A stretch of 64,000 nucleotides of DNA. It comes from an uncultured virus (IMG/VR IMGVR_UViG_3300028840_004776). Lineage: Duplodnaviria > Heunggongvirae > Uroviricota > Caudoviricetes. Below are positions 2,214 through 61,923 of this stretch, piece by piece. Positions within the stretch are counted from its first letter, which is position 1; the number at the start of each line of letters is the position of its first letter. A program made the translations under genes and the position numbers. Location of the stretch: IMG/VR virus record IMGVR_UViG_3300028840_004776; one strand, 5' to 3'. The notes beneath the pieces were generated by a model. It was not told where the DNA came from. It worked only from the letters and a program-made list of their open reading frames with translations, and searched no databases.

Positions 2214-2840
2214 ATGCCAGTAAAAAAAGTAAACGATAACAGAACAGAAGCAGAGAAAGAATATTCTTCTCTTGTCGATGAATTGGCTTCCCTTGATAAA
2301 AAACTAAAACAACAAGGTGAAAGTGGAACAAAATCAAATGAGCTTATTGGTTTGCTTAGAAAACGCCTTGTTGAACGGAATATGCTTCAAGGGTATTTCG
2401 GTAGGGATTTAATGAAACGCTGTAATGCGGTATTTAATCAACAGTTACGGCAAGAATTCCCATGGGAAGTCTATCGATCGGATATTAAATTTGTTCAAAA
2501 TATTTGGTCGGAAGATGATGCGTTGCATCGAACAAGTTTGCGTTCGATGCATTTAAGAAAATTATATGAATTGGTGCGTACATTAGAACAAGAACATATG
2601 TGGAAGGATCTTATTCGTCTTCATATGTTGATTGCTCAGATCAATGGTACGATTGTTCAAGAACAAACTGTTCAAAACAATGATTTAGAAGAAGAATATT
2701 CTGGTTGGTCAATCGAGGAGCTTGATCACTATGTCGAAACAGGGGAAGCGCCGTCGCGATTCGTTTATAAAACAGATAGTTCAAGCATCGAAAGTAATTC
2801 AGGGAACGAACAGACCAAAGGTTCGACTAGGTTGCATTAA
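2214..2840 (+). CDS. putative terminase small subunit
   Basis: Helical 208-aa ORF directly upstream of and overlapping terL; positional inference only. Confidence 0.5.
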   Translation: MPVKKVNDNRTEAEKEYSSLVDELASLDKKLKQQGESGTKSNELIGLLRKRLVERNMLQGYFGRDLMKRCNAVFNQQLRQEFPWEVYRSDIKFVQNIWSEDDALHRTSLRSMHLRKLYELVRTLEQEHMWKDLIRLHMLIAQINGTIVQEQTVQNNDLEEEYSGWSIEELDHYVETGEAPSRFVYKTDSSSIESNSGNEQTKGSTRLH

Positions 2841-5727
2841 TGATCTTGATAAGCAAATAGAACAGCATCGAAAAAACACAACCCCAAAACCACAAAAAAT
2901 GAACAAAAAAGATCCACCAAAATATGTGCGCCCGGAAGATTATCCGGAGCATTTTGATATAGTTTCATTTGATAATAGCAAGGATGAAATTAAACGAAAA
3001 TCTCTTGAAAAGCGAGTGCGCGCAAAACATGTTTCTATTATCCGAAAAGCACGTGATGATCCTAATGTTTTTGCAGAATATGCATTCATTGATCCCGATG
3101 GTAAATCATTTAAACAAGCAGAAATACACAAGGACTTTCAAAGAAAAGCTCTTGATGATAATTATAATTTTTTGATTTATAAATTCCCAAGGGATCATGG
3201 TAAATGCCCATGTGGTACCACTTTACTCGTTTCTGAGAACGGAGAATATATTAAGATAAAAAATTGGAAAGGAGGATATCTTTTAGCGGTGGATTGTCGG
3301 ACGATGAAGATTGTTAGAGCATATTCGTCTCCGTCTCAACCAAATGGATTAAGGAGATGTATTACGATAAAAACTGAATCCGGACGGGAACTTACGACAA
3401 CACGGAATCATCCATATCTTAAGGATCTTGAGTGGGTTGAAGCAGACGAGCTTGAAGTTGGTGATCGTATTGGAATAATGAATGGATGTTCCATTCCGGT
3501 AGAAGGGAACATGACCGCACTTGAAGGTTATGCTGCTGGTGTAATTGTTGGTGATGGATGCGTTACTAAATCAGCAGGATTTTCAAACCCAGAAGATCAT
3601 ATAATTAGTTTAATGACATCGTTTTGTGATAAAAATAATTGGAATATAAAGCTTATAAAAAATACAAAATGTGCATATGGAATATCAAAAACAATTATGT
3701 GTGGAGATTATGGACCTCGTGACTGGCTTAGAGATCTTGATTTATTAGGTAGAGGTGAGTACGAAAAACACGTACCGGTTCAAGTGCTTACTGGCGGGCA
3801 TTCAGCGCGGCTAGGATTTCTACATGGGTATTTCGATACGGACGGAACGGTTAATCCGTTGCGCGGTGGATCATTTGAGTACAATTCTGTTAACAAAGAT
3901 TTGTTAATAACAATACAAGATATGCTTGCTCGAATTGGTGTAGTTTCTGTTTTAGTGCGAAAGAACGGAATATATAAAGGTACTAGACACAAGTCTTGGA
4001 GATTGATGATTCGCGGTCAATATATGGATGTTTTTTTTAGAAAAGTTTTGCGTATTGGAAGGAAGTATAATGAAGCCAAAGAGGTCGTTGAAAAATATGA
4101 AGTTGGCAATGAGTGTGGTGGAAAACTTGATTTGATACCGGAGGTGGTTTGGAGACCATTTGTAAAAAATTCATATAGTTATTTAAAAAAACGTGGTATT
4201 CGTATTGATGGATCAAAAAATCTTACAAGAACAAAACTTAGAAAACTTGCAATTGCAGATGATTACAATATTGATTTATTTACGATGTTAGATTCGCATA
4301 TTTTTTGGGATAAAATAGTAGAAATAGTTGATGCCGGACAAAAAGAAACGTATTCGATTGAAGTAAAAGAGCATCATAATTTTGTAGCCCATGGGTTTAT
4401 TACTCATAACACTTCTCAGATGATTATTCACACAATTTGGGAATTAGGTAATGATCCGAATCTTCGGATTAAATTAGTGTGCGAATCATCTAATCGTGCT
4501 CGTGAAAGGTTACAAACAATTTCGCAACATATAGAAAAAAATCCAAAAGTAAGAAATGTATTTCCTCATTTAAAACCGGCAAAAAAGGGTGATTGGACGA
4601 AATCAAAAATCATGATTGAGCGGTTGTTGATCTCACCGGATGCATCGATTGAAGCTACCGGTATTCAGACAGCGGTAACCGGAGGTCGTGCGGACCGGAT
4701 AAAAGCAGACGACCCCGTGGGAAGACGGAATGCTTTGGAATTACCAAAACTTCGGAAGACTATTAAGATTGCATGGAAGTCGGACTGGTTGAATTTATTA
4801 GAACCCGGGGGTCGCGTGGTTTATATTGCAACCCCGTGGCACAAAGATGATCTTACACATGACATAGAGCGGAATCCAGAGTATCAAGTTTTGAGTCAAT
4901 CCGTTGATAATGATTACAATTCTCCGTGGCCGGAAAAATGGACACGGGAAGCGCTTCAACAAAAAAAGCGACAGATTGGTACAGAAGAATATGATCGTGG
5001 TTTTCGGCTTAAAGCATTGTCCGGTGATGTTGTTGTTGTTAGAAAAGAATGGATAAAATACTGGACAATCAAACCAAATTATGATAATTTAATCAAATTC
5101 ACAGCTTATGATTTATCGACCGGTGAAGGTGATGATTATTTTGCCTGGGTTACTATCGGTTTAAACCTTGAAACCGGAAGAATTTATGTGCTTGAAGCAC
5201 ATAATTCAAGGTATACGTTTTTGGATCAAGTTGAGGCTGTAAAACGTGGCGCTCGTATTTGGTCTCCTGAATTTATAGGCATTGAAACAGTTCAGTATCA
5301 AGCGGCATTGCCACAGTTTTTGACTGATCGCAGGTCTGGATTAATAATGCCAAATATTGTACAGATGAAGACAAAGAATCTACCAAAGAGAATTAGACTT
5401 ACAACAGTTACTCCGTTAATTGAGGAACCGGATAGAGTTTTATTTAATCCAGCAATGAATCCTGATAAAAATATCGAATTACGGGAAGAGGAAAATCTTG
5501 TTGATCAATTATGTGATTTTCCTCTCTGCGCTCATGATGATTTGGTTGATGCATTGATTTATTCATTGCAATTAGCAATTGATTATTGTCTTGGAAAGGA
5601 GATTGATAATGCTAAGGAAGAAGAAGAAAAGGAGTATGATATTGAAGAAGAAAGCGAGGAACAGGAAGAGGATTATGAAGAAGATGATGAGATCTCAAAT
5701 ATTAGGAAGTACTTTTCCGGCCATTGA
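2731..5727 (+). CDS. terL: terminase large subunit containing an intein
   Basis: Walker A PRDHGK/T, TGGRADRIKADD Walker B region, IATPWH, C-terminal nuclease FP..AHDDLVDA; GAGGAG at 2715-2720 supports ATG 2731. Confidence 0.93.
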   Translation: MSKQGKRRRDSFIKQIVQASKVIQGTNRPKVRLGCINDLDKQIEQHRKNTTPKPQKMNKKDPPKYVRPEDYPEHFDIVSFDNSKDEIKRKSLEKRVRAKHVSIIRKARDDPNVFAEYAFIDPDGKSFKQAEIHKDFQRKALDDNYNFLIYKFPRDHGKCPCGTTLLVSENGEYIKIKNWKGGYLLAVDCRTMKIVRAYSSPSQPNGLRRCITIKTESGRELTTTRNHPYLKDLEWVEADELEVGDRIGIMNGCSIPVEGNMTALEGYAAGVIVGDGCVTKSAGFSNPEDHIISLMTSFCDKNNWNIKLIKNTKCAYGISKTIMCGDYGPRDWLRDLDLLGRGEYEKHVPVQVLTGGHSARLGFLHGYFDTDGTVNPLRGGSFEYNSVNKDLLITIQDMLARIGVVSVLVRKNGIYKGTRHKSWRLMIRGQYMDVFFRKVLRIGRKYNEAKEVVEKYEVGNECGGKLDLIPEVVWRPFVKNSYSYLKKRGIRIDGSKNLTRTKLRKLAIADDYNIDLFTMLDSHIFWDKIVEIVDAGQKETYSIEVKEHHNFVAHGFITHNTSQMIIHTIWELGNDPNLRIKLVCESSNRARERLQTISQHIEKNPKVRNVFPHLKPAKKGDWTKSKIMIERLLISPDASIEATGIQTAVTGGRADRIKADDPVGRRNALELPKLRKTIKIAWKSDWLNLLEPGGRVVYIATPWHKDDLTHDIERNPEYQVLSQSVDNDYNSPWPEKWTREALQQKKRQIGTEEYDRGFRLKALSGDVVVVRKEWIKYWTIKPNYDNLIKFTAYDLSTGEGDDYFAWVTIGLNLETGRIYVLEAHNSRYTFLDQVEAVKRGARIWSPEFIGIETVQYQAALPQFLTDRRSGLIMPNIVQMKTKNLPKRIRLTTVTPLIEEPDRVLFNPAMNPDKNIELREEENLVDQLCDFPLCAHDDLVDALIYSLQLAIDYCLGKEIDNAKEEEEKEYDIEEESEEQEEDYEEDDEISNIRKYFSGH
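3205..4410 (+). mobile_element. 402-aa intein with LAGLIDADG homing endonuclease
   Basis: Starts with Cys (CPCGTTLL), block B TTTRNHPY, LAGLIDADG motifs AAGVIVGDG and LHGYFDTDG, ends FVAHGFITHN, +1 residue Thr. Confidence 0.93.
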
Positions 5728-7290: not shown

Positions 7291-8253
7291 ATGAATTTTG
7301 CAGATAGATTGATTGATGCAATTGATAAAAAGAAAAGTTACATTGTTGTTGGGTTAGATCCAGATCACAGGAAGATACCAAAGTATTTTTATGATAGAAA
7401 ACAAGATTTTTATATTAATAAATTTGATGAAATTTCTGATATTATATATCAATTCAATAGAACGATCATTGATATTGTTGCACCAATAGTGCCGGCGGTA
7501 AAACCACAAATTGCGTTTTATGAACGATATGGTGTTTTTGGTGTCAGAGCTTTCTTAGAAACAGTTCAATATGCTAAATCAAAAGGTTTGATTGTTATTG
7601 GAGATGTTAAACGTAATGATATTGGAAATACAGCTCATGCTTATGCGGATAGTTATTTGGGCCGTGTTGAAATTGATGGTAGCAATGAATCTGTTTTTGA
7701 TTTGGATGCAATTACCGTAAATCCATATTTAGGATCAGATGGAATTATTCCGTTTATTGACAATGTTAAAGAATACAATAAAGGTATTTTTGTTCTGGTA
7801 AAGTCATCAAACCCTTCATCGCGTGAAATACAAGATTGTTTTGTTTGTACCGAAGAATCAGATGATCTTATGTTGTATGAGCATATTGCGCAACGTGTTA
7901 ATTTTTTAGGAAAAGATTGTGTTGGTAATAACGGTTATTCTTCCGTTGGTGCTGTTGTCGGAGGAACTCATCCGGTGTGTGCGAAATCGCTTAGGAAAAT
8001 AATGCCGAAATCATTTTTTTTGGTACCGGGGTACGGTGCTCAAGGTGCAACCGGAAAAGATTTGATGAATTTCTTCAATAAAGATGGATATGGTGCACTT
8101 ATTTCAGCGTCACGGTCAATCAACTACCCCCATGGGGGTTACTTGGATGTTGATAGTAATAATTTTGAATCAATGGTTGCGTTTGCTGTAATGGATATGA
8201 ATAGAGATATTAATAATAATATTATTACCAAAAAAGCATTATTGTTGAAATAG
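7291..8253 (+). CDS. pyrF: orotidine-5'-phosphate decarboxylase
   Basis: VGLDP, KPQIAFYE, catalytic DVKRNDIGNT, TVNPYLG, LVPGYGAQG, SASRS. Confidence 0.95.
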   Translation: MNFADRLIDAIDKKKSYIVVGLDPDHRKIPKYFYDRKQDFYINKFDEISDIIYQFNRTIIDIVAPIVPAVKPQIAFYERYGVFGVRAFLETVQYAKSKGLIVIGDVKRNDIGNTAHAYADSYLGRVEIDGSNESVFDLDAITVNPYLGSDGIIPFIDNVKEYNKGIFVLVKSSNPSSREIQDCFVCTEESDDLMLYEHIAQRVNFLGKDCVGNNGYSSVGAVVGGTHPVCAKSLRKIMPKSFFLVPGYGAQGATGKDLMNFFNKDGYGALISASRSINYPHGGYLDVDSNNFESMVAFAVMDMNRDINNNIITKKALLLK

Positions 8254-10314: not shown

Positions 10315-11484
10315 ATGAAACAAAAAGAATTTTGTGAAAAGTGTTTTGATAATCTTGAATCTAATATAAAAATATTAGACGATTATTGGCCGATAATCGG
10401 AGAAACAATTTTATCAAAACACGAATCAAACTATGTTGTTGATTTGATTTTTCAAATCTCACATGGAAAAATTCATAAAATGTTCAATGGTCGACTTTCT
10501 CCTTATTATCCCACTCCAAAAAAATATATTGATGCCGTAAAAAATCAAAATAGAAATTGGTTTGTTCTTCACGCAACCGGAGGTGTTAGTATAAAGCCAG
10601 TATTAACATGGTTTTCTGGTTTGGCAAGAGAAGACAGAGACGGAGCAATTAGATTACGCGGTGGCTCATCTCATTTTGTTGTTGAGCACGACGGTACCCC
10701 ATGGGTTTTAATTCCGCTAACCGATGGTGCGTGGCACTGTTATCAACGGAACAGAGATTCAATTGCGATTGAATTAATAAATACAACATGGTTGGATTAC
10801 AGAAACGGAAAGTATTATTGGTGGAATGGTTTATACAAACTACCATATAAACCAATAAAAATAAGTAAAAAATTTCGTGGCAAAAGGTACTTTCAGCCAT
10901 ATGATGAAAGACAGATAATAACAACATTCAAACTTATGCGATTGGTTATTAGTGCAATAGGTAAAGAAAAATTTTCAATAGAACGTGTGACTTCTCATAC
11001 AGATTGGAGTAAAAAGAAGTTTGATCCAGGTCCATTGTTTCCATTTGATATTTTAACAAAAGATGTTTTTGGTTTTGAAAAAATGTCAAACATTGAATGG
11101 ATACAAGCGTTTCAAGATCAGAATAATCAAAGTTTTGATACAGATACAACGGTTGATAAAGATGAATTAAAGCAATTATTTGATATTCAAACTTGTTCTG
11201 AAACACAAGATGAGTTTGATCATTCATATAGACCTGTGGATTTTAATTATAAAATACAAAAACAATTAGTAAAACTTGGGTTATTAAATTCTAGACATAT
11301 TAATGGGATTTTTGGTTCTGCAACAAAACAAGCGGTTAGAAATTTTCAAATTTCTTGGAATGTTAGAAACAAAAAAGATCAAATAAAAGTTGATGGAATA
11401 CCAGGTCCACAAACAATGAGCAGAATATTTGTATATAAACACAACTTGATGCATACACAAATACAACAAATAAGAGGAATTTAA
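10315..11484 (+). CDS. endolysin: N-acetylmuramoyl-L-alanine amidase (Amidase_2) with C-terminal peptidoglycan-binding domain
   Basis: VLHATG, SSHFVV, AWHC, SIAIE, H...K.DPG; C-terminal GIFGSATKQAVRNFQ...VDGIPGPQT. Confidence 0.88.
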   Translation: MKQKEFCEKCFDNLESNIKILDDYWPIIGETILSKHESNYVVDLIFQISHGKIHKMFNGRLSPYYPTPKKYIDAVKNQNRNWFVLHATGGVSIKPVLTWFSGLAREDRDGAIRLRGGSSHFVVEHDGTPWVLIPLTDGAWHCYQRNRDSIAIELINTTWLDYRNGKYYWWNGLYKLPYKPIKISKKFRGKRYFQPYDERQIITTFKLMRLVISAIGKEKFSIERVTSHTDWSKKKFDPGPLFPFDILTKDVFGFEKMSNIEWIQAFQDQNNQSFDTDTTVDKDELKQLFDIQTCSETQDEFDHSYRPVDFNYKIQKQLVKLGLLNSRHINGIFGSATKQAVRNFQISWNVRNKKDQIKVDGIPGPQTMSRIFVYKHNLMHTQIQQIRGI

Positions 11485-12040: not shown

Positions 12041-12612
12041 AACAAAAAACAGATTCAGTATTTGTGGTTTTGGTTATATTTTTGACCGGTATATTGATAT
12101 CATGCGGCACACAAACCCCATGGGGTACCGGTAATGCGTTGCTAGCAACTGTTGCAAAAACTGTTGCGTATACGGATTTGCATGTTAGTGAAATGATTTC
12201 TAAATCATTAAACAAAGCACAACAAGATGTTGTCAAAGAAGCAGCACAAGACAAGGTGATTAGATTAGCTTGTTTGAATCAAAATATACATTCTGATTTA
12301 TGTTCTCCAGAAAAAAGTTCTCAGTATTATATTGGTAGATATAGAGAATTGATAAAATCAGTCGAATCTGCTGTTTATTATTTAGAAACAACTAGAGATT
12401 TGATAATTATTGGTGATTCAATACTTCGTGAATGGAGGAACACAAAAAGACTTCCTGTTGAATTTAATGCATGGTGTCTTGATTTGACTGATTCTTTGCA
12501 ATTAACATATGAATTTATTGATGACATTGGTATTGATTTAAATATTAATACCAAATCAATAATTAATACAATTAAACAAATATGTGTTTTAGGTCAAAAA
12601 AATGAGTTTTGA
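12037..12612 (+). CDS. predicted lipoprotein
   Basis: Basic N-terminus, hydrophobic stretch and LISC lipobox. Confidence 0.6.
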   Translation: MKQKTDSVFVVLVIFLTGILISCGTQTPWGTGNALLATVAKTVAYTDLHVSEMISKSLNKAQQDVVKEAAQDKVIRLACLNQNIHSDLCSPEKSSQYYIGRYRELIKSVESAVYYLETTRDLIIIGDSILREWRNTKRLPVEFNAWCLDLTDSLQLTYEFIDDIGIDLNINTKSIINTIKQICVLGQKNEF

Positions 12613-14965: not shown

Positions 14966-15718
14966 ATGAGTTACTTAATAAACGGAGATTATAAAGATGT
15001 AAAAATAAAAGAATTATTTGGAGAAGTTAATTTATTTATTGTTGATCCACCTTATGGTAGAATAGTTAGTGATTCATATGATAGAATAAGCCCAAAAGAA
15101 TTAGTCAATGAATTAATTAGATTGTTTTATTGGATTTCTAAATACGCAAAAAAAGGTGCAACAGTTTATTGTTTTGGTGGAATTGGAACATATAGAAATA
15201 GACCATTTTTTGAGTTTTTATCAAGAATAGAGTTTGAATCAGATTTTAGAATACACAATTTTCTGACATGGAAAAAGCGGCGTGGGTATGGTGCGAAATA
15301 TAATTATATGTACGCACGCGAAGAAATAGCAATGTTTGTTTATGATGATAAAAAACCAAACTGTTTTAATATTCCATTACTCAATAATGAGCGTAGTGAT
15401 GAATGGAAAAAGCGATTAGAAAAACAAAAATATAAACCTAAAAGTGATAGAATGCGGCGTAGTAATGTATTTACTGATATTAATGAAATATTCAGAAATC
15501 AACACAAAAATAGCAATCTACTTGTTTCTGCACAAAAACCAGAAAAACTTATTCAGGTTTTAGTAGAAACTAGTAGCAATTTAGGTGATATTGTTATTGA
15601 TCCAATGGCTGGATCAGGAACAACCGCTGTTGTTTGTTCTGAGCTTTGTCGGAAATTTGTTTGCATAGAAAGAGATACAGAAGTTTTTAATATAATACAA
15701 AAAAGAATAAATAAATGA
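14966..15718 (+). CDS. DNA amino-methyltransferase (beta class), orphan
   Basis: IVDPPY, AQKPEKL, DPMAGSGTT. Confidence 0.9.
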   Translation: MSYLINGDYKDVKIKELFGEVNLFIVDPPYGRIVSDSYDRISPKELVNELIRLFYWISKYAKKGATVYCFGGIGTYRNRPFFEFLSRIEFESDFRIHNFLTWKKRRGYGAKYNYMYAREEIAMFVYDDKKPNCFNIPLLNNERSDEWKKRLEKQKYKPKSDRMRRSNVFTDINEIFRNQHKNSNLLVSAQKPEKLIQVLVETSSNLGDIVIDPMAGSGTTAVVCSELCRKFVCIERDTEVFNIIQKRINK

Positions 15719-16263
15719 ACATAAGATCAAAAAAACATATGCTCAAATTGTTTTATGAAAACAAGCTTGGAAATAGACTTCAAGTATGGCACACAAAGGA
15801 AGATCTGTTAAAATCCGTTGATGATGGATTTGATGGATTGATTGGTATTCGGTATATAGGAAAACCTGGGCTTCCATATTACCATCATAAAACGCCTGAA
15901 GAAGCAATTGAAATCATAGACAATATCAATACAACGAAATATCCTGTTTTATTTTTTGAAGCAAGCCAAGATCAATATATAATTTTTCAAGGTGAAATAA
16001 CAGAATACCCATGGGGTTATGGGTTAGAATACACAACAAAACGTACTCATATGAGAGTTGCATTCAAACAAGAAAGAAAATCTATATTTAGCAATAGAAT
16101 ACCTTCGATAATACAAGCCAATTTTAATAAACAAAGTCTTGATGATTTATTATTATTATTCAAAGAATACCCATATTCAACAATAGAATTTTCATGTTAT
16201 GAAATATTAGTTGGAATTTTTAGTGGCAGAAATGTTTGTCATTGGGAAGTTAGGCATTATTGA
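15715..16263 (+). CDS. hypothetical protein
   Basis: ATGA-type overlap with the methyltransferase stop; 182 aa. Confidence 0.7.
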   Translation: MNIRSKKHMLKLFYENKLGNRLQVWHTKEDLLKSVDDGFDGLIGIRYIGKPGLPYYHHKTPEEAIEIIDNINTTKYPVLFFEASQDQYIIFQGEITEYPWGYGLEYTTKRTHMRVAFKQERKSIFSNRIPSIIQANFNKQSLDDLLLLFKEYPYSTIEFSCYEILVGIFSGRNVCHWEVRHY

Positions 16264-18148: not shown

Positions 18149-18380
18149 TTTTTTTCTTGATTACTAAATTGTTTGTGTTATAATAATTATGCAGCAAGTA
18201 ACTTGATAAAAATTCATATCCCTTTTTTCTTTAAACAAAGACTTTCTATTGAAAGTCTTTGTTTTTTTTCTTGATTTTGAATTTATATATTGTATTGTAT
18301 AGATAGATTTTTCATTACAGTAACCCCATGGGGTCATGTTTTGTACCTCTAACATGATTCCACGGGGTTTTTTATTACGA

Positions 18381-31514: not shown

Positions 31515-31518
31515 CCCC

Positions 31519-33884: not shown

Positions 33885-33888
33885 TCCC

Positions 33889-43665: not shown

Positions 43666-43826
43666 TTGCCGATTTAGCATATATATCCCATGGGGGTAGT
43701 GGTTTTGGCTGGCAGCCAAGTGAAATTATGGAATTAACTTTTGAAGATGCGGAGTTTTATATAAAAGAATTAAATAAAAAACGAAAAAATGACTATGATG
43801 CAATAAAGGCAGCAAACAAGAGGTAA
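43617..43826 (+). CDS. -1 frameshift extension of the tail chaperone (GT/E'-type)
   Basis: Slippery T TTT TTC at 43617-43623; the -1 frame is open to TAA 43826 and encodes ...GFGWQPSEIMELTFEDAEFYIKEL. Confidence 0.8.
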   Translation, partial: FFLKEISTNGEYIRNIIADLAYISHGGSGFGWQPSEIMELTFEDAEFYIKELNKKRKNDYDAIKAANKR

Positions 43827-43841
43827 AACAAGAGATTAATT

Positions 43842-46295
43842 ATGGGTAATTTTGAACAAATGGGTATTGGAATCATGCTTTCTGCGCGAGATATGATGTC
43901 TGGACCCATGGGGTTGATTCGCGGTAATTTTCTTGGCTTACAATCGGCAATAACATCCGGTGCCGGACGAATCATGAAATCATTTGCTGCTATTGCTGCG
44001 GGAGCGGCATTGCTTGGAACCGGACTTGCTGGTTTACGGGGATCATGGCAATTAGCAACAGAAGCAGGTGAATTTACACGGACATTAACATCCGTTGGAA
44101 TTGTTTCCAGAGCAACCCGCGGAGAAATGGAATTATTGCATCAATCTGCCGTTCAAGCTGGTATCGCTACACAATTTTCACCACAAGAAGCCGCCGAAGG
44201 TTTGCAATCATTGGCTACGGCTGGACAAAATGCTCAAGCATCAACCCAAACATTGATTCCCGTCTTAGATTTAGCAGCCGGATCATTGGGTCAATTAGGT
44301 GTTGCGGAAGCAGCATCTAGTGTTGTTGGTGTTTTAAATTCATATCAAATGTCGGCAAGCGAAGCAACAGGTGTTACAGATCGTTTGTTGAGAGTAACTC
44401 AAATGACGAATTTTCAAGCAAGTGATTTTGCTGTTGCACTTGGAAGATTGTCATCGGCCGGATCTTTGTATAATCAAACATTAGACGATCAATTAATTGG
44501 TATGGGTTTACTTAGAAACGCAAACATTGAAGCATCTGTTGGATCAACATCATTGAGGGAAGCACAACGAAGAATTTATACAGAAGAACAATCATTAAAA
44601 AATTTAAGGGAAGCAGGAATTGATGTTTATAACCAACAAACCGGAGCGGCAAGAGATTATTTGTCGATTATTACAGATGCATATGCAGCAACAAGAAGTA
44701 TGACTGATGAGGAACGAAATAGATTCGTCGTTCAAACATTTGGTCAACGCGGTATGGCTGCAATGAATGCAATTGGTCGTGCCCAGGTTGAAGTTACAAG
44801 GGAAGGACGTAGGGTTACACTAACCGGAATTGAAGCGATTAGACATATGCGCACCGAGATGGAAAACGCCGATGGAACAGCTCAAACATTCCGTGAGACT
44901 TTAGCGGATACATTTGCCGGACAAATGACGTTACTCACAGGAACATTACAAACTCTTAAAATTACTCTTGGTGAGGTATTTGGTAGAATTTTTAAACCAC
45001 TTGTTCTTGGTGTAACAACAGCAATTAATAAATTTATTCAAGTTTGGACTGCTATTCCAAAAGGTCTTCAAACATTTATTGGAATTGCTTTCCTTGGTAC
45101 ATCTGCATTTATGGTTTTAGCCGGTGCAATCTTAATCACGGCCGGTATAATTGGATTACTTGCTCCGATATTATCAACCGTTGGTGTTTTGATTTTAAAA
45201 ATCGCCGGTGCAATAGCGCTCGCATTGGCTCCGTTTATAGTACTTGGTGCCGGTGCAGTTGCTATATCAATAATGATTTATAAAGCGTATCAAAAAAATC
45301 TAGGGGGGATTGCAGATTTTATCGATAACATGATTGCCAAAGTAAGACTAACATGGGATGGATTGGTACAATTATTCACTCAAGGTGGTTTTTCCGGTGC
45401 AGTATTAGAAGAAATGGAGAAAGCAGAAAACGAAGGGATAATGCAATTCGTAATTAAAATTTTTCGTTTCGGGTCTAGACTAAAATCAATTTGGGACGGA
45501 ATGGTTGCATCGATTGGTCCAGCGTTCAAAACACTTGGACCAGCATTTAGTGAATTAGGGACAGCATTAAAAGGATTGTTTGTAGAAGTCGCAAAACTTT
45601 TTGGACCAACCGGAAAATTAGTAACCGGAGCAAACGAAGTACCGTTAAGTGAATATGCTGCAATCGGTGTTACAATAGCTCGCGTAATAATCGGTGCAAT
45701 TCACGGAGCAATATTTGCGACAACAATGCTAATTAGAACATTCAAAGTCTTAGCAATGTTCATGCAACCAATTGTTTGGGTTTCAAAACATGCTTTTGGT
45801 TTACTTGTTGAAATGATCGGTGTTGCCGGCGAATACATGGATTATTTGATTCCAAAAATTCAAAAAGCGGTTGAGTTTTTGTACAAACTAATTGAACCAT
45901 TGATGCCGTTGTTAGAAGCGACACAAGCAATCAATAGAACCGTTTTTGCAACAGCCGGTGGTGTTATTGGAGAAATTTTCCGCACCGGTGAAGATGATTC
46001 ATCACGACCGGAAGAACGCGGTGTTAGGTTGTCAACTCAACGTCGTGCCGAATCCGCAGAACGAACGGAATCTGGAAGAACACCAGCAGCAGCAAGCGCT
46101 GAAAGCACGGTTGCGAGTCAACGAGAATTACAAGCATCAATACAACAATTGGCTCAACAGCAACAACGAGGTCAACAAAGGCCATTGGAAATAACAATTA
46201 GAAACGAACTTGACGGAGAACAAATAGCTGAGTCCGTAACACGTGTTCAAGAACGCAATGGTGGCCTTGCCGGACAAGTAACGAGGCAAACATAA
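43842..46295 (+). CDS. tape measure protein (TP901-like core)
   Basis: TQFSPQEAAEGL..LA.AG...L..VLDLA; A/G-rich with a hydrophobic middle. Confidence 0.92.
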   Translation: MGNFEQMGIGIMLSARDMMSGPMGLIRGNFLGLQSAITSGAGRIMKSFAAIAAGAALLGTGLAGLRGSWQLATEAGEFTRTLTSVGIVSRATRGEMELLHQSAVQAGIATQFSPQEAAEGLQSLATAGQNAQASTQTLIPVLDLAAGSLGQLGVAEAASSVVGVLNSYQMSASEATGVTDRLLRVTQMTNFQASDFAVALGRLSSAGSLYNQTLDDQLIGMGLLRNANIEASVGSTSLREAQRRIYTEEQSLKNLREAGIDVYNQQTGAARDYLSIITDAYAATRSMTDEERNRFVVQTFGQRGMAAMNAIGRAQVEVTREGRRVTLTGIEAIRHMRTEMENADGTAQTFRETLADTFAGQMTLLTGTLQTLKITLGEVFGRIFKPLVLGVTTAINKFIQVWTAIPKGLQTFIGIAFLGTSAFMVLAGAILITAGIIGLLAPILSTVGVLILKIAGAIALALAPFIVLGAGAVAISIMIYKAYQKNLGGIADFIDNMIAKVRLTWDGLVQLFTQGGFSGAVLEEMEKAENEGIMQFVIKIFRFGSRLKSIWDGMVASIGPAFKTLGPAFSELGTALKGLFVEVAKLFGPTGKLVTGANEVPLSEYAAIGVTIARVIIGAIHGAIFATTMLIRTFKVLAMFMQPIVWVSKHAFGLLVEMIGVAGEYMDYLIPKIQKAVEFLYKLIEPLMPLLEATQAINRTVFATAGGVIGEIFRTGEDDSSRPEERGVRLSTQRRAESAERTESGRTPAAASAESTVASQRELQASIQQLAQQQQRGQQRPLEITIRNELDGEQIAESVTRVQERNGGLAGQVTRQT

Positions 46296-46858
46296 TGCCT
46301 AACAACGAAACAAATACAAACCCACCCAAATGTGCAATTATTAATTTAGCAACACAAGATAGATTTGATTTTCAATTCAATCCAACCGAATTACTCGAAC
46401 AACTATCAGTTGAATATGAAAGAATCTCAGGACCCGGGTCAACAAGACAAATATTACAATTCAAAGGTGTTCAAAATAAAAAAGTTCCAGTTCAAATTTA
46501 TTTATCACAATTTATTCGTGAAGAAGAGTTTGGTACATACGGGTTGGATGCAATTTCTCCAACGGTATTGCAAGAAAAGCAATGGCTTGAATCGCTCACA
46601 TACCCCATGGGGGATGGCGAAACAGATCGTCCTGATCCGCCAGATATTTTATTTATTTGGCCACGTACTATTCAGATTAAAGGAAAGGTTATAACGGCAA
46701 ATTTCAGACATCAAAGTTTTTCATCACGCACAGGGGAAACACGTAGGCTTGTTGCTGATTTAGCAATTGAAGAAGAAAGTGAAGTGAGAAAAATAATGCG
46801 TGATGTTATGAGTTATGAATTTAGTCATATGCCAACACCACAACAGTCAGCGAGATAA
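46295..46858 (+). CDS. tail tube initiator-like baseplate protein
   Basis: FQFNPTEL...L.V.Y, PPDILFIW. Confidence 0.75.
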   Translation: MPNNETNTNPPKCAIINLATQDRFDFQFNPTELLEQLSVEYERISGPGSTRQILQFKGVQNKKVPVQIYLSQFIREEEFGTYGLDAISPTVLQEKQWLESLTYPMGDGETDRPDPPDILFIWPRTIQIKGKVITANFRHQSFSSRTGETRRLVADLAIEEESEVRKIMRDVMSYEFSHMPTPQQSAR

Positions 46859-49148: not shown

Positions 49149-49883
49149 ATGCCCGGAGAAAAAGATAATAATCTATACATAGGTGAAGTTGTAAATAATA
49201 AAGATCCGGAAAATTTGATTCGTATCAAAGCTCGTGTTGTTGGAAAATTTGAACCGGAATCCCCATGGTGTCAACCAATTGGTCAACCGGGATCCGGCGG
49301 AACAAGAAACGGAACACAAAAGGGCCGTGTTGAAGTGCCTCCGGTAGGTGCTAACGTAGCGATATTATTTGAACAAGGCAATGTTCAACGTCCGTGTTAT
49401 TTACCGGGCCCATGGGGTTGTCCCAACGGTGTAACGGATGTACCCAATTCTGCGATAATAGAAGATGAAAACAGACAATCTGTTGTAGAAGAGTGCGAAG
49501 AGTTTGAGATTATTAGAGACGGAAGAACAACGGATAAATTTTACCAAATAAAACACAAATCTTCTGGATTGATTATCCGTATTGACGGAATTGATAATAA
49601 AATTTATTTTGCCGCAGATGATGCCGATCAAGCACTTATTAGGGGAACAGAATACAGAGCGGAAGAAGCTTCTGTTTTATCAGATATTGCCAGTGCATTA
49701 TTCAATGCTTCTGTTTCATTAAATACCGCTGGAACAGATCCGGTATTTTCTGGACTTGCACCGGCGGCAGCGTCTGCAATTGTTAGTGCCGGAACACAAT
49801 TAATGAATGCATCAACATCTATTTCTGGATCACAATTAATAACAGCATCATCATATTTGTCGCAAAAAGTTTTTACGGATTAA
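49149..49883 (+). CDS. baseplate spike (gpV/gp5 OB-fold)
   Basis: GEVVNNKDPENLIRIKARV, W, PPVGANV...FEQG....P.Y. Confidence 0.85.
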   Translation: MPGEKDNNLYIGEVVNNKDPENLIRIKARVVGKFEPESPWCQPIGQPGSGGTRNGTQKGRVEVPPVGANVAILFEQGNVQRPCYLPGPWGCPNGVTDVPNSAIIEDENRQSVVEECEEFEIIRDGRTTDKFYQIKHKSSGLIIRIDGIDNKIYFAADDADQALIRGTEYRAEEASVLSDIASALFNASVSLNTAGTDPVFSGLAPAAASAIVSAGTQLMNASTSISGSQLITASSYLSQKVFTD

Positions 49884-51877: not shown

Positions 51878-52872
51878 TGGCAATTGAAATTGTCAGAAAT
51901 ACATTCACAAATATAACTGGAAATTTTTGGCCAGAACACCACTTGTTTAATTTAGCATCAATGATGTCATTATTAACAAATGTTGAAATAATTGATTCTT
52001 GGGGTGTTGATCACGGTCAATATATTGGTGATCCAATAGCCGATGCTGAATGGACGGCTTATACCGATATTGGAGATCAAGGTTATTTTGTTATTCAACC
52101 AACGAACCCAACATATTCACCAACATGGCAGGCAATTTTTCATCATGCAAATAGGTATTACGGATTTGATGATCCGTCCGGTAATGACTATGGAAACGAA
52201 GGTACGGCATGGAGAAACTTAATTAGATTTGCACCGGAGGGGGGTTGGAACACAACTTCAAAAGATTTTGCAACACCTTCACGGGCTTCACAAAATAGAT
52301 ATCCTGGTGGCGCTTTAAATCCATCAGCACGCACAAATACATTTTATATACATTGTGACGAAGACACATTAATTCTACAATCAAGATATGCTGATAGAGC
52401 GTGGGAATTTTATTCAGTACTCGCATATCTTGGGGATTACACGCGACGATCAGATTCCCAAACCAACCCACGTTGTTTTATTTGCAAAGATGGTGGCGCT
52501 TATATGTCACCAGCATATCAATGCACTACCGCAGGGAATTTCGTTCCTGAAAGCGGATTCGAAACTGACGGTATTGGATTTCTGGATGAATCAAATACAT
52601 ACCGACATTGTTCGTATACAACTAAAAACGGAGATAAAATAATCTCACCGCTGACACAACCAACAACCCATGGGGCAATTCCTAAAGTTGACATTTATCC
52701 AGTTCAAATTAAACCAACATCTGCGTGGGATGGTTATCTTGGTGATCTTAGACTTGTAGGAAAAACATTTGGTCCCGGACCCGGATACAGGTTTGATTTA
52801 AACAGATGGATAAGCACATATGAAAATTATGGATGTTCATTTGGGTGGGATGGAAGTTCGTCGCAAAAATAA
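51877..52872 (+). CDS. tail-associated protein, paralog A
   Basis: Shares FDDPSG.DYG.EG...RF...GGWNT...DF with the next gene. Confidence 0.7.
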   Translation: MAIEIVRNTFTNITGNFWPEHHLFNLASMMSLLTNVEIIDSWGVDHGQYIGDPIADAEWTAYTDIGDQGYFVIQPTNPTYSPTWQAIFHHANRYYGFDDPSGNDYGNEGTAWRNLIRFAPEGGWNTTSKDFATPSRASQNRYPGGALNPSARTNTFYIHCDEDTLILQSRYADRAWEFYSVLAYLGDYTRRSDSQTNPRCFICKDGGAYMSPAYQCTTAGNFVPESGFETDGIGFLDESNTYRHCSYTTKNGDKIISPLTQPTTHGAIPKVDIYPVQIKPTSAWDGYLGDLRLVGKTFGPGPGYRFDLNRWISTYENYGCSFGWDGSSSQK

Positions 52873-54751: not shown

Positions 54752-54763
54752 GGAGGAAACCCC

Positions 54764-56269
54764 ATGGGGCAATTACTATACGATTACTATGGATTGCCAA
54801 ATAATCCGCCAGTAATTACCGAAAAAGAGCCAGATACAGATTCAGAAATCGGTGATGCAATAATTTCATTTGTTGTTTCGGATTCAACAGGTGAAGCCGT
54901 ACAGAGTTCGTTAGATGTTGACATTATTCAAGACCCAAATGGAACACCAATAACAGAAAATATGATCATTAATGGGGTCTTTCAAACACCGGATTATGAC
55001 GGCACAATAGTACCGAATGTATTCGGTGGTTTTGATGTCGAAATTACAACACATCCATATTTAGCAGATGCAGAATATAGAATAACAGTTTATGTCGAAG
55101 ATACAATAGGAGATTACAGAGAAGATCAATGGGATTTCGAGGTAGCAACAACCCCTATTTTACTTAATTTAATTACAACCGGAAGACGAACAATTGAATT
55201 AGAATTCGATTTACCAATTGTTGTAAGAAATACATCTATTGGACTAATAAATCCGTCCGATCAATGGACGCCGGTTGACTGGATATCCCATGGGGGGGGT
55301 GCATCGGACGCTGCAAATCCGGCTAATTACGTGATTACCAGACCAAGTTCCGGTTCATTAACGGAACCAGGTGAAGCGGTTGAATTAACGGTAACAAAAG
55401 CGGAAGAAGTTCCTGAATATTCGTCTATTTCATTAGGTAAAAAACGATCAACAAGAATAAAATTAACTACTGATTTTCAACATACAGCAAACGCATCATA
55501 TTTAATGCAAGTTTCTAATGTTGTTTATGATATTTCTCCAATACAAACCGAAGACGGACAATGGGATTTTAAAGGTTTTATTGTTTCAAATGTAAATCGT
55601 AATTCTATAAATTTATATTATGATCTTTTTTCACGTGTTCATAGATTAGCTGATTCCGAAATAGAAGAACAAGATTTTTTAAAATTCTGCACAGTATTTC
55701 AAGAAGTATTTAATAGACTTCTTGAAGATATTGATGCATTCTATAATGAATTATGTTCTATTGATTACCTATCAGAGTCCGCTGCCGATGCTACATTGTT
55801 TGATTTCGGAAATCCGTTTTATAAGTTAACCGTTGGTTTGAGTTTGAACAAAAAACGTAAATTATGTTCATTGCTTATATCTATTTATAAACAAGTTGGG
55901 ACGGAAATCGGAATTAAAAATGTTGTTAGATTTTTTCTTGGATATGATGCTATTTCTGATATAATTTATTGGTGGTCTGATAATTGGATATTAGGTGTTT
56001 CTGAATTGGGTACAGAAACAGTATTGGGTCCAGGAAATCAATATGATTTGTATTCATTTTGGGTCGTAACATCACAAGTATTAACTGATGAAGAAGAAGA
56101 ACAAATAACTGATATTATTGAATACATGAAACCGGCTCATACACATTTTAGAGGATTTATTGAACCAATTGTTCCACCGGATGATCCGGTACGGTGGTCA
56201 TTGGGTGTTTCTGAGTTAGGTACTGAAACAATTCTCGGTCAACGTAGTGAATGGTGGTATGTTCCGTAA
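54764..56269 (+). CDS. baseplate wedge/tail protein I-like (C-terminal P2 gpI-type domain)
   Basis: KR.L......IYK..GT..GI...VRFFLG, YMKPAHTH; AGGAGG RBS. Confidence 0.8.
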   Translation: MGQLLYDYYGLPNNPPVITEKEPDTDSEIGDAIISFVVSDSTGEAVQSSLDVDIIQDPNGTPITENMIINGVFQTPDYDGTIVPNVFGGFDVEITTHPYLADAEYRITVYVEDTIGDYREDQWDFEVATTPILLNLITTGRRTIELEFDLPIVVRNTSIGLINPSDQWTPVDWISHGGGASDAANPANYVITRPSSGSLTEPGEAVELTVTKAEEVPEYSSISLGKKRSTRIKLTTDFQHTANASYLMQVSNVVYDISPIQTEDGQWDFKGFIVSNVNRNSINLYYDLFSRVHRLADSEIEEQDFLKFCTVFQEVFNRLLEDIDAFYNELCSIDYLSESAADATLFDFGNPFYKLTVGLSLNKKRKLCSLLISIYKQVGTEIGIKNVVRFFLGYDAISDIIYWWSDNWILGVSELGTETVLGPGNQYDLYSFWVVTSQVLTDEEEEQITDIIEYMKPAHTHFRGFIEPIVPPDDPVRWSLGVSELGTETILGQRSEWWYVP

Positions 56270-58668: not shown

Positions 58669-59169
58669 TCAAGATTTTTGTTGTGATTTTTTACCAATAA
58701 TCTGATCAACAATTTTCCTTTTTGTTTTTCTTATTGCATGGAATGGGCTTCTTGGGCGCTTTTCTTTTCCTGTGCGCTGTTCCGCAAAGTTTCCACCGCA
58801 GCCCAAAAAAAGCTTATTGATAATTCGATAGTCAGAGACACAAGTGTCACCCCATGGGGTTTTAAACGCAAAATCCCGAGTATGCCACACGTAACAAACC
58901 CCACTCGGGAATGCTAATAAGAATGCATAATCTGCCATTGCGGCTTGTTTATAACTTTTGCAAACAACTCCACCAATTATGCATTTTCTTTGCCATTTTT
59001 TTGATTCAATTGCTTTTTTTATCAATTGCTTTCCTTTTTCCTTAATTTTTTCCCTGTCGATAACTCGCTCACGTCCTTTAATCGTTGAGTACGATACGAT
59101 GATTATCGGATTCGTTTTTGATCGATAATCTTCGAATTCTTTGATTGTCATTGTCATTTTCTTTGCCAT
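58669..59169 (-). CDS. hypothetical basic protein
   Basis: AAGGAG RBS before MAKK at 59169. Confidence 0.7.
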   Translation of the reverse strand: MAKKMTMTIKEFEDYRSKTNPIIIVSYSTIKGRERVIDREKIKEKGKQLIKKAIESKKWQRKCIIGGVVCKSYKQAAMADYAFLLAFPSGVCYVWHTRDFAFKTPWGDTCVSDYRIINKLFLGCGGNFAEQRTGKEKRPRSPFHAIRKTKRKIVDQIIGKKSQQKS

Positions 59170-60452: not shown

Positions 60453-60540
60453 GAAAAAAGTTATAACTTTTATGAAAAGCGAAGATTTTTTAATAAACAC
60501 CAACAAACTTTTTGGTATATATTTTGCTTTTAATACATTA

Positions 60541-61923
60541 TTAAAAAGGCAACTCATCATCATAGGATGAATTGTAATCATCTGTAGTCAAGCCAACCAC
60601 TTTGCTTTTAGTCGAAGTAATTGACTCACAACCCCCCATTAATCGCTCACACACATCGACGACACACCCATGGGAGTCCGCAAGGTATGTCCAGTCCATT
60701 GCTGGAAAATCATCATCAGAGCGCAATCTATCGCATAATAACGTGTTTCGTTGCAAAACATTATTATTCCGGATTGCTCGATTTAGACCCTTTCGATTCC
60801 CAACAATTTGAACTAGTTCTTTCCCACGTGTTACTGCCGTATAAAGTAAAGGTCTTGATAACATAAAGGAATTAGTGGAATGACACGGAATAATCACGGC
60901 ACGATATTCGGAGCCTTGTGATTTGTGGATTGTCATGGCATAGCAAAGTTGTAACTCGGCAATATCTTTTTTGTTTTCGTATTGAACTATCCGGTCGTAA
61001 AAATCCACGGATATTAGTGTTTCACCGAAATCCGTATCAATGTCCGTGATTATTCCCACTTCACCATTGAACGCCCCAAGACTATAATTATTTCGCGTGT
61101 GTATGACTTTATCACCTTGCCGGAATATTGTATCACCCATTTTGTACTCTGGTTTTGTATTGCTTGATGGGTTCATAATTTCTTGTAATTTTTTATTAAA
61201 TATAGTCACACCAACCGGAGATTTCCACTGTGGACAAAGAACTTGTGTGTCACGGATAGGATCTATTTTGTATTTTCCACCAACAATTTTTGTTATCAAA
61301 TACACAATTGCATCAAAAACCTGTTCCGGTGTTTCACGTTCAAAGAAGAAAAAATCTTCCGAAGTGCTGTTATTTTCATATATTTTTTGTCCGGTATTTA
61401 TTCTTTGTGCATTTTCGGAGATCCAAGAATTCTCCGATTGCCTATGTATTTGAGTCAATCTAACCACCGGAACAATACCGGAATTGATTATATCGCTCAA
61501 TGTGTTTCCATAACTAATTGACGGTAATTGATCAACATCTCCAACCAATATTAATTTTGTTGGTGGATTTACTGCCTTCAATATTGAATTAAATAAACTA
61601 GTTCCAACCATTGACATTTCATCAATAATAATAACATCTTCACAAAACGGATTTTTTTCATTAACCGTAAATCCACCGATTGATGGTTTCCACCTCAAAA
61701 GACGATGAATTGTAGATGCCGGTCGACCAGTTTGCTCTGATAACCGCTTTGCAGCTTTTCCCGTTGGTGCTGCACACAACACAGATCTCCCATGGGATTG
61801 CGCCATGTCTATTATCTGTCTGCATACCGTTGTTTTTCCGGTTCCCGGTCCACCTGTTATCACCAATACTGGTTTTGTTTGCGACAATTCTATTGCTGTA
61901 GTTTGCTCAGATGTTAGTTTCAC
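60541..61923 (-). CDS. recD: RecD2/TraA-like SF1B DNA helicase (compact)
   Basis: GGPGTGKT, APTGKAA, STIHRLL, IIDEMSM, VGDVDQLPS, LTQIHRQ, YAMTIHKSQGSE, LYTAVTR. Confidence 0.93.
   Translation of the reverse strand: MKLTSEQTTAIELSQTKPVLVITGGPGTGKTTVCRQIIDMAQSHGRSVLCAAPTGKAAKRLSEQTGRPASTIHRLLRWKPSIGGFTVNEKNPFCEDVIIIDEMSMVGTSLFNSILKAVNPPTKLILVGDVDQLPSISYGNTLSDIINSGIVPVVRLTQIHRQSENSWISENAQRINTGQKIYENNSTSEDFFFFERETPEQVFDAIVYLITKIVGGKYKIDPIRDTQVLCPQWKSPVGVTIFNKKLQEIMNPSSNTKPEYKMGDTIFRQGDKVIHTRNNYSLGAFNGEVGIITDIDTDFGETLISVDFYDRIVQYENKKDIAELQLCYAMTIHKSQGSEYRAVIIPCHSTNSFMLSRPLLYTAVTRGKELVQIVGNRKGLNRAIRNNNVLQRNTLLCDRLRSDDDFPAMDWTYLADSHGCVVDVCERLMGGCESITSTKSKVVGLTTDDYNSSYDDELPF

Follow-up and report, generated by a model that had tools for sequence, protein, structure and literature searches.

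Through in silico analysis of a 64,000-nucleotide stretch of DNA from an uncultured tailed phage of the class Caudoviricetes (IMG/VR record IMGVR_UViG_3300028840_004776), the palindromic octamer CCCATGGG has been identified as a word repeated along the whole phage segment. The stretch at its full length is called the window, and positions refer to it unless another contig is named. The window represents most of the genome of a phage with a contractile-tail gene set. The structural genes encode a terminase with an intein, a portal, a Mu-F-like protein, an XkdF-type protease and a major virion protein, while the tail genes encode a tail tube, a tape measure, a baseplate hub, gpV, gp25 and gpJ; the opposite strand carries a divergent module that includes a RecD2-like helicase. 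No tRNA gene was detected in the window, and neither a repressor nor an integrase was seen in it. The guanine-cytosine (GC) content is 33% overall and 29-38% across 4-kb bins.

The octamer is present in the window in 24 exact copies, with starts from 2459 to 61789 (Table 1). A zero-order model expects 0.14 copies, which gives an observed-to-expected ratio (O/E) of 168, the highest of all 8-mers in the window, and the words ranking next are overlaps of CCCATGGG itself. Markov models of orders 1-4 expect 0.38, 0.13, 0.16 and 0.66 copies, respectively (O/E 36-180), and 100 dinucleotide-preserving shuffles contained 0.29 copies on average and two at most. The 8-21 copies predicted by orders 5-6 are uninformative, because these models contain the word's own sub-words. 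The set of palindromic 8-mers composed of six G/C and two A/T positions has 64 members; CCCATGGG is represented by 24 copies, seven others by one each and the other 56 by none. An earlier interpretation made from the letters alone (the sequence-only reading) had proposed the word as a signal resembling HIP1, the highly iterated palindrome (HIP) of cyanobacteria. Its figures were reproduced: the 24 start coordinates are all exact, its expectation of about 0.1 copies at about 30% GC compares with the 0.14 computed at 33%, and the count against Markov nulls that it proposed gave 0.13-0.66 copies at orders 1-4 vs the 24 observed.

The boundaries of the word are sharp. The central hexamer CCATGG occurs 31 times in the window, and the seven hexamers outside the 8-mer (31 minus 24, the number that had been estimated before) correspond to chance level, with 5.2 expected; the inner CATG is not enriched (193 vs 193). 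The 24 one-mismatch words account for 12 copies in sum, none of them for more than three, and their counts, which are too small to weigh, display no bias toward transition products. Since CCATGG alone stands at chance and one-mismatch words are few, the unit is the full octamer CCCATGGG. Seven sites extend to CCCCATGGGG, as also noticed earlier, and four to ACCCCATGGGGT. The preference in the flanks is symmetric: of the 48 half-sites, 30 have A at -2/+2 and 24 have C at -1/+1, and at position -3, 25 have A and 14 have T. The extended consensus is a-A-C-CCCATGGG-G-T-t, its flanks being weaker than the core, and its full form is ACCCCATGGGGT. Symmetric flanks of this kind are as expected of a dimer with a footprint larger than 8 bp. 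The density in the window amounts to 375 octamers, 109 decamers and 62 dodecamers per Mb. Four more copies of CCCATGGG are found in the 4,959 bp that the overlapping metagenome contig L039 adds past the window end, giving 28 copies in 69 kb (about 406 per Mb, or about one per 2.5 kb). The spacing is somewhat evener than random, with a coefficient of variation of the gaps of 0.67 vs 0.96 (P = 0.022, 5000 simulations).

The copies lie in unrelated genes. Both strands and all three frames are used, as first described, and the count by frame is three for Pro-Met-Gly, eight for x-His-Gly and nine for Pro-Trp. The remaining ones comprise three in which ATG is a start codon (31519, 33889, 54764) and one located between genes (43687). 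When synonymous codons were permuted within each gene in 500 runs, 6.4 copies were left on average and 10 at most, vs 24 observed; five of the 6.4 are sites out of the shuffle's reach (between genes, at start codons or in an uncalled gene). The O/E under this codon-preserving null, which had been named earlier as a check, is not near 1. The word is carried at 20 of the 23 in-gene positions where the peptide permits its spelling, namely at 3 of 3 PMG, 8 of 11 [STPA]HG and 9 of 9 xPW[GAVDE] positions. One of the three empty positions, 63209, belongs to a plus-strand open reading frame (ORF) that overlaps minus-strand genes and is probably spurious. To become the octamer, ten of the 12 one-off words would require a different amino acid, one could be converted synonymously (27354), and the last is in a gene truncated by the window end. 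The analysis shows that CCCATGGG is imposed at the DNA level and is not a product of codon usage or of a protein motif.

Protein comparisons show that the word has also changed amino acids at permissive positions. Word-compatible peptides number 23, vs 8.5 +/- 3.0 (maximum 18) in 400 within-protein residue shuffles, an excess of about 2.7-fold, and T-P-W-G occurs four times in four unrelated proteins vs 0.04 expected. In the tube-like protein the Pro is found in 62 of 67 aligned sequences, and the next two positions are variable (M in 2 of 67, G in 9 of 67); the M of the phage is found in one other sequence, and the closest homolog reads P-V-G. In the RecD2-like helicase an S-H-G stands opposite S-L-G in the solved Deinococcus radiodurans enzyme. 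In pyrF, the P-H-G is conserved in the closest homologs, and the word is spelled there via the rare codons CCC and GGG; CCC accounts for 37-38 of about 750 Pro codons. The near-saturation of synonymous positions, the peptide excess and the absence of any similarly abundant palindrome of matched composition together back the DNA-level, HIP1-like signal put forward by the sequence-only reading.

The sites are not artefacts of one assembly. Three other records of the phage were compared: IMG/VR contig L001 (18.6 kb) differs from the window by one mismatch in 15,514 bases, IMG/VR record G001 is 99.99% identical over 38.4 kb (three mismatches and one gap), and L039 (8,968 bp) is identical over 4,009 bases. 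The CCCATGGG sites are identical in all three. L039 was the sole match of an exact 50-mer from the window end among metagenome contigs, and the same 50-mer had no match in viral contigs. The longest contig on record for the phage, in a protein database, has 82.6 kb, of which window and L039 cover all but about 14 kb. The phage or parts of it occur in six sequencing runs from five studies, all of them sediment or seawater metagenomes, with no isolate and no RNA run among the six. Contigs of four runs were compared over 39001-59000. A 29.8-kb Logan contig of run X2, in which the phage stands at a word depth of about 60, matches 39001-58530 with zero differences, small contigs of low depth from runs X3 and X5, which belong to other studies, cover the copies at 43905, 46604, 52667, 54761 and 55287 with no difference, and no variant letters were found in the Logan contigs aligned over that range. 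The assembly or ligation junctions that had been considered as a possible source of the sites are contradicted by this identity across independent records and runs. The flanks of the 24 copies have nothing in common beyond the 12-bp palindrome and therefore represent no repeat family.

Table 1. Copies of the iterated word, with their peptide contexts, and candidate reader or marker genes
Feature	Position	Strand	Context	Peptide or remark
CCCATGGG copy	2459..2466		ORF 2214-2840	F-P-W-E, Pro-Trp frame
CCCATGGG copy	4388..4395		intein part of terminase gene, intein C-terminal block	A-H-G
CCCCATGGGG copy	8129..8136		pyrF	P-H-G
CCCATGGG copy	10698..10705		amidase gene	T-P-W-V
ACCCCATGGGGT copy	12117..12124		ORF 12037-12612	T-P-W-G
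CCCATGGG copy	16008..16015		ORF 15715-16263	Y-P-W-G
ACCCCATGGGGT copy	18325..18332		minus-strand ORF 18164-18436	T-P-W-G
CCCATGGG copy	19099..19106		minus-strand ORF 18641-19285	L-P-W-V
CCCATGGG copy	26400..26407		ORF 25880-28132	T-H-G
CCCATGGG copy	27111..27118		ORF 25880-28132	S-H-G
CCCCATGGG copy	31516..31523		ATG is start codon of ORF 31519-32565	directly 3' of the stop of the small winged-helix ORF
CCCATGGG copy	33886..33893		ATG is start codon of ORF 33889-34350	
ACCCCATGGGGT copy	34260..34267		ORF 33889-34350	T-P-W-G
CCCATGGG copy	39486..39493		ORF 38730-39698	P-M-G
CCCATGGG copy	43687..43694		between ORF 42853-43665 and tape-measure gene	no called ORF; frame reads open to 43826
CCCATGGG copy	43905..43912		tape-measure gene	P-M-G, residue 21
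CCCCATGGGG copy	46604..46611		tube-like ORF 46295-46858	Y-P-M-G
CCCATGGG copy	49409..49416		baseplate gpV-like ORF 49149-49883	G-P-W-G
CCCATGGG copy	52667..52674		ORF 51877-52872	T-H-G
CCCCATGGGG copy	54761..54768		ATG is start codon of ORF 54764-56269	AAGGAGG 6 nt upstream
CCCATGGG copy	55287..55294		ORF 54764-56269	S-H-G
ACCCCATGGGGT copy	58851..58858		minus-strand ORF 58669-59196	T-P-W-G
CCCATGGG copy	60667..60674		minus-strand RecD2-like helicase gene, C-terminal tail past the part aligned to 3e1s	S-H-G
CCCATGGG copy	61789..61796		RecD2-like helicase gene	S-H-G, aligned to S-L-G of solved D. radiodurans RecD2
CCCATGGG pair beyond window	window-equivalent 64831 and 64852		intergenic	21 bp apart
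CCCATGGG copy beyond window	window-equivalent 65803		intergenic	one-mismatch CCTATGGGG 18 nt downstream (L039:3150-3190)
DNA methyltransferase, N6_N4_Mtase family	1506..2192	+	candidate reader/marker	DPPY; orphan
Second methyltransferase, N6_N4_Mtase family	14966..15718	+	candidate reader/marker	DPPY; orphan
Third methyltransferase, D12 (Dam-like) class	35921..36847	+	candidate reader/marker	DPPY; orphan
72-aa ORF, weak winged-helix matches	31296..31514	+	speculative DNA-binding candidate	ends directly at a copy

Candidate proteins that might read or mark the word have been sought among the phage genes. Three DNA methyltransferases were identified, all without a neighbouring endonuclease. The D12 enzyme scores 76 bits, below the Dam subfamily cut-off of 114.85, and among solved structures Dam comes closest to it, at 41 bits. 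We take the DPPY motif of the three enzymes to point to adenine methylation, and therefore only the central A of CCCATGGG could be their target. That one of these orphan methyltransferases is the reader or writer of the word is a speculative proposal, as is the same role for the 72-residue winged-helix protein, whose matches to MarR, HTH_34 and TrmB have E-values of about 1e-3 (below the Pfam cut-offs) and whose match to the N-terminal winged helix-turn-helix of AbiEi has an E-value of 5e-5. No restriction endonuclease, Vsr, MutH, MutS or MutL match was obtained among the proteins scanned (56 and 50), nor any endonuclease family match in the 56 scanned against PADLOC. Around relatives of the D12 methylase, 78 IMG/VR loci were collected, and each has 0-2 copies of CCCATGGG. 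Eleven of them (L191, L192, L198, L202, L203, L207 and L212-L216; methylase identity 35-48%) are rich in HIP1, with 5-57 copies of GCGATCGC and up to 57 in 12.9 kb, and two are also rich in TCGATCGA. The D12-methylase family is therefore common on cyanophage-like or cyanobacterial DNA. The appearance of these loci also means that the screen detects iterated palindromes readily and that CCCATGGG is peculiar to this phage.

The search for other carriers of the word was extended to relatives of the portal gene and to bacterial genomes. The phage has few close relatives on record: megablast of 20 kb of the window against 50,697 phage records gave zero matches, tblastn of the portal against the same set matched 244 records, all below 60% identity, and the nearest portal homologs in a set of 5.8 billion proteins reach at most 55%. 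The 37 IMG/VR loci around portal relatives, mostly of 39-70% GC, hold 0-1 copy each. A paired-word scan, in which two 10-mers had to lie 3-33 nt apart, was applied to viral contigs and to a species collection. It returned seven viral loci, where at most one copy was added to the pair, and at least 120 loci in the species collection. Among the matches listed, no species-collection locus of at least 5 kb has several dispersed copies, and the loci of at least 5 kb with more than three copies are tandem arrays (L094, L123, L071, L073, L124). Whole genomes were searched for the 8-, 10- or 12-mer, and none of the 963 sampled bacterial genomes comes near the phage density. Five Desulfobacterota-type genomes contain 56-359 copies in 3-5.8 Mb, i.e. 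17-62 per Mb vs 375 in the phage, and the maximum among 151 Thermotogota is 86 copies in 3.3 Mb (26 per Mb). At most 20 copies of the 10-mer were found in 401 genomes of a Clostridia-type phylum (that of G008), at most five of the 12-mer in 401 genomes of a Desulfobacterota-type phylum (that of G002), and 0-1 copy of the 12-mer in five further genomes of other phyla. The enrichment that the sequence-only reading had suggested looking for in related phages and candidate hosts was not found in the portal relatives, the methylase relatives or the 963 genomes. A hint to the host may come from a full-length orotidine-5'-phosphate decarboxylase gene (pyrF_sub2, 7291-8253; 268 bits vs a cut-off of 110.6), whose homologs, of at most 58% identity, come from metagenome-assembled genomes of uncultured Deltaproteobacteria, Nitrospirota and Atribacteria; this homology appears to be a weak and indecisive pointer. 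No description of CCCATGGG as a genome-wide motif was found in the literature searched, where the string, among the papers listed, stands in primers or in other unrelated contexts, and no paper on over-represented palindromes of phage genomes was retrieved; in the searched library the literature on highly iterated palindromes with phages is cyanobacterial only, which agrees with the earlier statement that the motif is undescribed in a phage.

The word fills nearly every synonymous opportunity, is sharply defined and is specific to this phage among everything compared. The reading tentatively preferred here, with a probability of about 40%, is that CCCATGGG is a HIP1-like, selected cis-acting word, read on duplex DNA by a protein of two-fold symmetry. 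Selection would maintain a density of about one per 2.5 kb over the full chromosome, and the word would be read by a symmetric protein that binds or modifies double-stranded DNA, so that the phage genome would carry dense, fairly even docking or marking sites. Each site would bring a local, distance-limited benefit; more and evenly spread sites would therefore be favoured, and every affordable position would be used. The pay-offs that come into consideration are self-marking, protection, compaction and guidance of repair. The functions proposed by the sequence-only reading, i.e. a mark for a methyltransferase or for repair, a site for a protein of DNA organisation or self-recognition, and a signal for recombination or packaging, are all still candidates. 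If the reader or writer were one of the orphan methyltransferases, a speculative case, the result would be a methylated self-mark similar to the cyanobacterial HIPs linked to methylases (PMC4390886). The stronger version, an autonomous self-mark in which a dedicated phage protein reads the 8-12-bp palindrome, perhaps methylating its central A, and thereby tells phage from host DNA, is judged unlikely. If true, the mark could spare phage DNA from the phage's own RecD2/PD-(D/E)XK nuclease machinery or direct repair or packaging, and it would constitute a virus-encoded counterpart of the cyanobacterial HIP/methylase pairs and a tractable system for studying the function of iterated palindromes.

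Several observations weigh against a selected word. Unconstrained DNA is not filled with it: CCC precedes only three of the seven genes starting with ATGGG, and of the other four, one is blocked by an overlapping stop codon and three are simply unoccupied. The evidence for even spacing is modest (P about 0.02). The central A would be the sole possible target of the methyltransferases, and CATG as such shows no enrichment, and the specificity of these enzymes is not given by PDB, NCBIfam, PADLOC or the source names, which provide generic 'adenine methylase' labels only. A signature derived from the host keeps some probability, as the sampled genomes correspond to about 0.5% of 199,900 species, in a few phyla only. 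No diverged relative, which the comparison of site conservation with synonymous divergence made for HIP1 (PMC5861425) requires, was found, all four records being at least 99.99% identical. Without that comparison, a strong drive by biased repair explains the saturation equally well.

Such a drive is the basis of a rather unlikely, though not negligible, alternative, in which the signature is imposed by the host: a host methylase together with biased very-short-patch or methyl-directed repair would drive near-cognate sequences to CCCATGGG, and the phage would acquire the word passively. The synonymous near-saturation together with the unfilled spacer DNA fits a conversion acting on near-cognates, and the 11 HIP1-rich loci among the 78 relatives of the D12 methylase are cyanophage-like contigs that carry the host's GCGATCGC densely. 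Biased repair of near-cognate sequences is what Elhai proposed for HIP1 (PMC4390886). The alternate HIPs GGGATCCC, TCGATCGA, GGCGCC and rCCGGy differ between lineages (PMC4390886), and the CCGG count of the phage, about twice the codon-shuffle expectation (230 vs 116), is reminiscent of the last of these. Against a host signature stands that neither an enriched genome among the 963 sampled nor a dispersed multi-copy locus of at least 5 kb among the listed matches of the paired scan was found; the phage proteins scanned include no Vsr, MutH, MutS or MutL. For HIP1 itself, the available text of Xu et al. favours selection and argues against biased repair (PMC5861425). Quite improbable is a Chi-like signal for nuclease control or recombination, addressed to a host system of the RecBCD/AddAB type or to the phage's RecD2-like helicase and PD-(D/E)XK nuclease. 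Such a signal would shield phage DNA or initiate recombination-dependent replication, and the palindrome would act from either direction. The helicase and the nuclease are encoded close together, and phages without RecBCD inhibitors are enriched in host Chi. One site per about 2.5 kb with evener-than-random spacing also fits a distance-limited, additive benefit per site, under which every cheap opportunity would therefore be used. The perfect palindrome and its symmetric flanks are better matched by a dimer bound to duplex DNA, and no genome over-representing the word was found among those sampled.

The use of the self-complementary word as a building block of RNA or DNA hairpins, in which copies pair with one another as terminators or processing hairpins, is highly improbable as its general role. 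The extended copies at 64831 and 64852, just past the window end, do form a 15-bp stem (-35.1 kcal/mol, z = -4.1, no shuffle folding as well) with a T-rich tail at its 3' side, which the consensus scan classifies as terminator-like on both strands, and the copy at 65803 could pair with its one-mismatch partner CCTATGGGG through a G-U wobble. However, for 22 of the 24 copies in the window there is no partner within 370 bases, the exceptions being 43687 and 43905, which lie 218 apart. Most copies are inside genes and in all frames, a lone 8-10-mer would, on reading the sequence, form a stem of only 2-3 bp, and hairpins need no single fixed word. Since few copies are paired and most lie in genes, the hairpin looks like a secondary use of an abundant word. 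The probability that there is no signal at all, and that the copies result from composition, codon usage, a repeated protein motif, a repeat family or an assembly artefact, is practically nil. The 6.4 copies left by codon shuffles and the 8-21 predicted by Markov orders 5/6 would favour this view, but they trace back to unshuffled copies or sub-words of the word itself. The proteins that hold the copies are unrelated, the flanks of the copies are unlike beyond 12 bp, and independent records are identical. Composition, codon and assembly explanations are excluded.

Other features of the genome were recorded alongside the word. In the large terminase gene (2722-5727), an intein (Intein_splicing E 3e-15) includes a LAGLIDADG homing-endonuclease domain (LAGLIDADG_3 E 1e-12), and the RNaseH-like domain of the terminase is found at the C-terminus of the same gene. 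The RecD2-like helicase is distributed over two genes: the core is encoded at 60541-61923 (-) and the OB/HHH N-terminal part at L039:4157-5053, which reaches into the window at 63907-64000 (-). About 2 kb with five small ORFs separates the two parts, and one small ORF, 62964-63290, matches the PADLOC family 'unknown small protein sometimes fused to CARF' (E 7e-18). The arrangement may represent a split gene with an insertion or two separate genes. Beyond the window, L039 encodes the PD-(D/E)XK nuclease (exonuclease PHROG, 674-1786), a 300-residue pentapeptide-repeat protein (1804-2706, E 1.5e-69) and a Pam3 gp34-like protein (3206-4069).

A repeat-rich region at 59300-60500 lies between divergent modules. 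Record G001 ends at the repeat there. The region comprises a 71-nt element in four copies, a direct repeat of 168 nt (copies 92% identical and 389 nt apart), 9-nt GGTGGCCGA-type repeats that would encode Gly-rich stretches, and the AT-rich palindrome AAGTTATAACTT, whose six copies (with at most one mismatch; 0.4 expected) are confined to 59366-60469. Judged by these elements, the region looks like an origin or an operator cluster, and such a conventional regulatory region, with its AT-rich AAGTTATAACTT, looks quite unlike the distribution of CCCATGGG. Tandem repeats are located at 1-159 (27 nt x 5.9, running off the window start), at 18381-18639 in a minus-strand region (71 nt x 3.6) and at 21264-21418 inside ORF 20937-21500 (18 nt x 8.6, ACCAAAGAAGAACCGGTT). 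A second candidate for an iterated palindrome, AACCGGTT (10 copies vs 0.6 expected), was rejected, as its count is due to this 18-nt tandem repeat. With regard to short words, the CCGG count of 230 vs 116 in the codon-preserving shuffle corresponds to z of about 14, and TCCGGA and ACCGGT occur 35 and 27 times vs 5.2 at zero order; CCGG may be a second DNA-level word, comparable to the rCCGGy case of Elhai 2015. CAGG, TCAGG, GGAG, GAGG and AGGA are depleted, Shine-Dalgarno-like words being strongly avoided inside genes; avoidance of Shine-Dalgarno-like AGG in NCA-GGN codon pairs may explain part of both the CCGG excess and the AGG depletion.

The word can be compared with several known classes of short DNA signals. 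Its central hexamer CCATGG is the NcoI site, and targets of restriction-modification systems are normally avoided in genomes. In contrast to such a target, the hexamer alone stands at chance (7 vs 5.2), the word is enriched and not avoided, and no endonuclease was found in the 56 proteins. Binding sites of nucleoid-associated proteins, i.e. the NBS of Noc, the SBS of SlmA and the matS of MatP, are 12-16-bp palindromes with a GC core and AT flanks that are located in coding DNA and read by dimers. They number tens per several Mb, whereas the phage word is about 20-50 times denser, and we know of no nucleoid docking site with this word from a phage. The Chi sequences known so far lack symmetry, show strand bias and are recognised on single-stranded DNA. 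The word is like Chi in being short and GC-rich, in occurring once per few kb and in a benefit that would add up per site; unlike Chi, the palindrome CCCATGGG cannot carry strand bias.

The stoperators of cluster A mycobacteriophages, the sites of the L5 gp71 repressor, are 13-bp asymmetric words, oriented with transcription and largely intergenic; they have a known repressor and are read by this single phage protein. The phage word resembles them in that two to three dozen copies of a short word are spread over the whole phage genome, about one per 2 kb. Unlike a stoperator, CCCATGGG is a perfect palindrome with symmetric flanks and lies mostly in genes, and the window has no visible repressor or integrase; in place of a stoperator repressor, only the weak 72-residue winged-helix ORF was found, window and L039 covering all but about 14 kb of the 82.6-kb contig. 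A C-tract/G-tract palindrome is also known from the type-2 operator of CsoR, given as ATATACCCCTNAGGGGTATAT in the available text of PMC3902906. This operator needs TAC/GTA flanks and is intergenic and present in few copies, whereas the phage flanks are A-A-C/G-T-T (T at -3 in 14 of 48 half-sites), the copies are mostly intragenic, and the phage proteins scanned include no member of the CsoR family. Four short, low-GC bacterial loci among the listed matches of the paired scan (L127, L131, L143, L147) have pairs of TATACCCCCATGGGGTATA before genes. These pairs have the form (TA)TACCCCCATGGGGTAT(A), lie 10-25 nt apart and have the C4-AT-G4 core in common with the phage word; by their arrangement they look like type-2 operators of the CsoR family.

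The closest correspondence is with the highly iterated palindromes, and by its testable defining features CCCATGGG is a phage-borne member of this class. As far as the available text of PMC4390886 and PMC5861425 goes, HIPs are treated as a cyanobacterial trait, are over-represented 15- to 300-fold and occur at about 500-2500 per Mb. Membership of the class would further involve a genome-encoded methyltransferase specific for the word or its core (Elhai 2015, PMC4390886) and, across related genomes, a conservation of sites that exceeds the neutral level (Xu, Lawrence and Durand 2018, PMC5861425). Like HIP1 (GCGATCGC), the phage word is a GC-rich 8-bp palindrome and the dominant word of its genome, with an O/E of 168 that falls within the range of 15-300; copies are found in every frame as well as between genes, longer symmetric forms are frequent, and orphan methyltransferases are encoded in the same genome. 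Unlike HIP1, it is without a GATC or CGATCG core, and its carrier is a 33%-GC phage from sediment and seawater metagenomes whose window shows no cyanobacterial feature. At 375-406 per Mb, the density lies just below the 500-2500 per Mb quoted from the available text for HIPs, and in place of sharing within a lineage, the word was found in this phage only, the 963 genomes searched giving no comparable carrier. Three decades after HIP1-type palindromes became known, their function is still under debate, in the available text of the two papers, between methylation-guided repair (PMC4390886) and chromosome structure (PMC5861425). The iterated-palindrome signal now appears with another word in an AT-rich sediment phage, where it fills about nine tenths of the synonymous opportunities and alters amino acids. 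This phage, whose longest contig measures 82.6 kb and which has about 30 sites and three methyltransferases as candidates, represents a system far smaller than a cyanobacterial chromosome.

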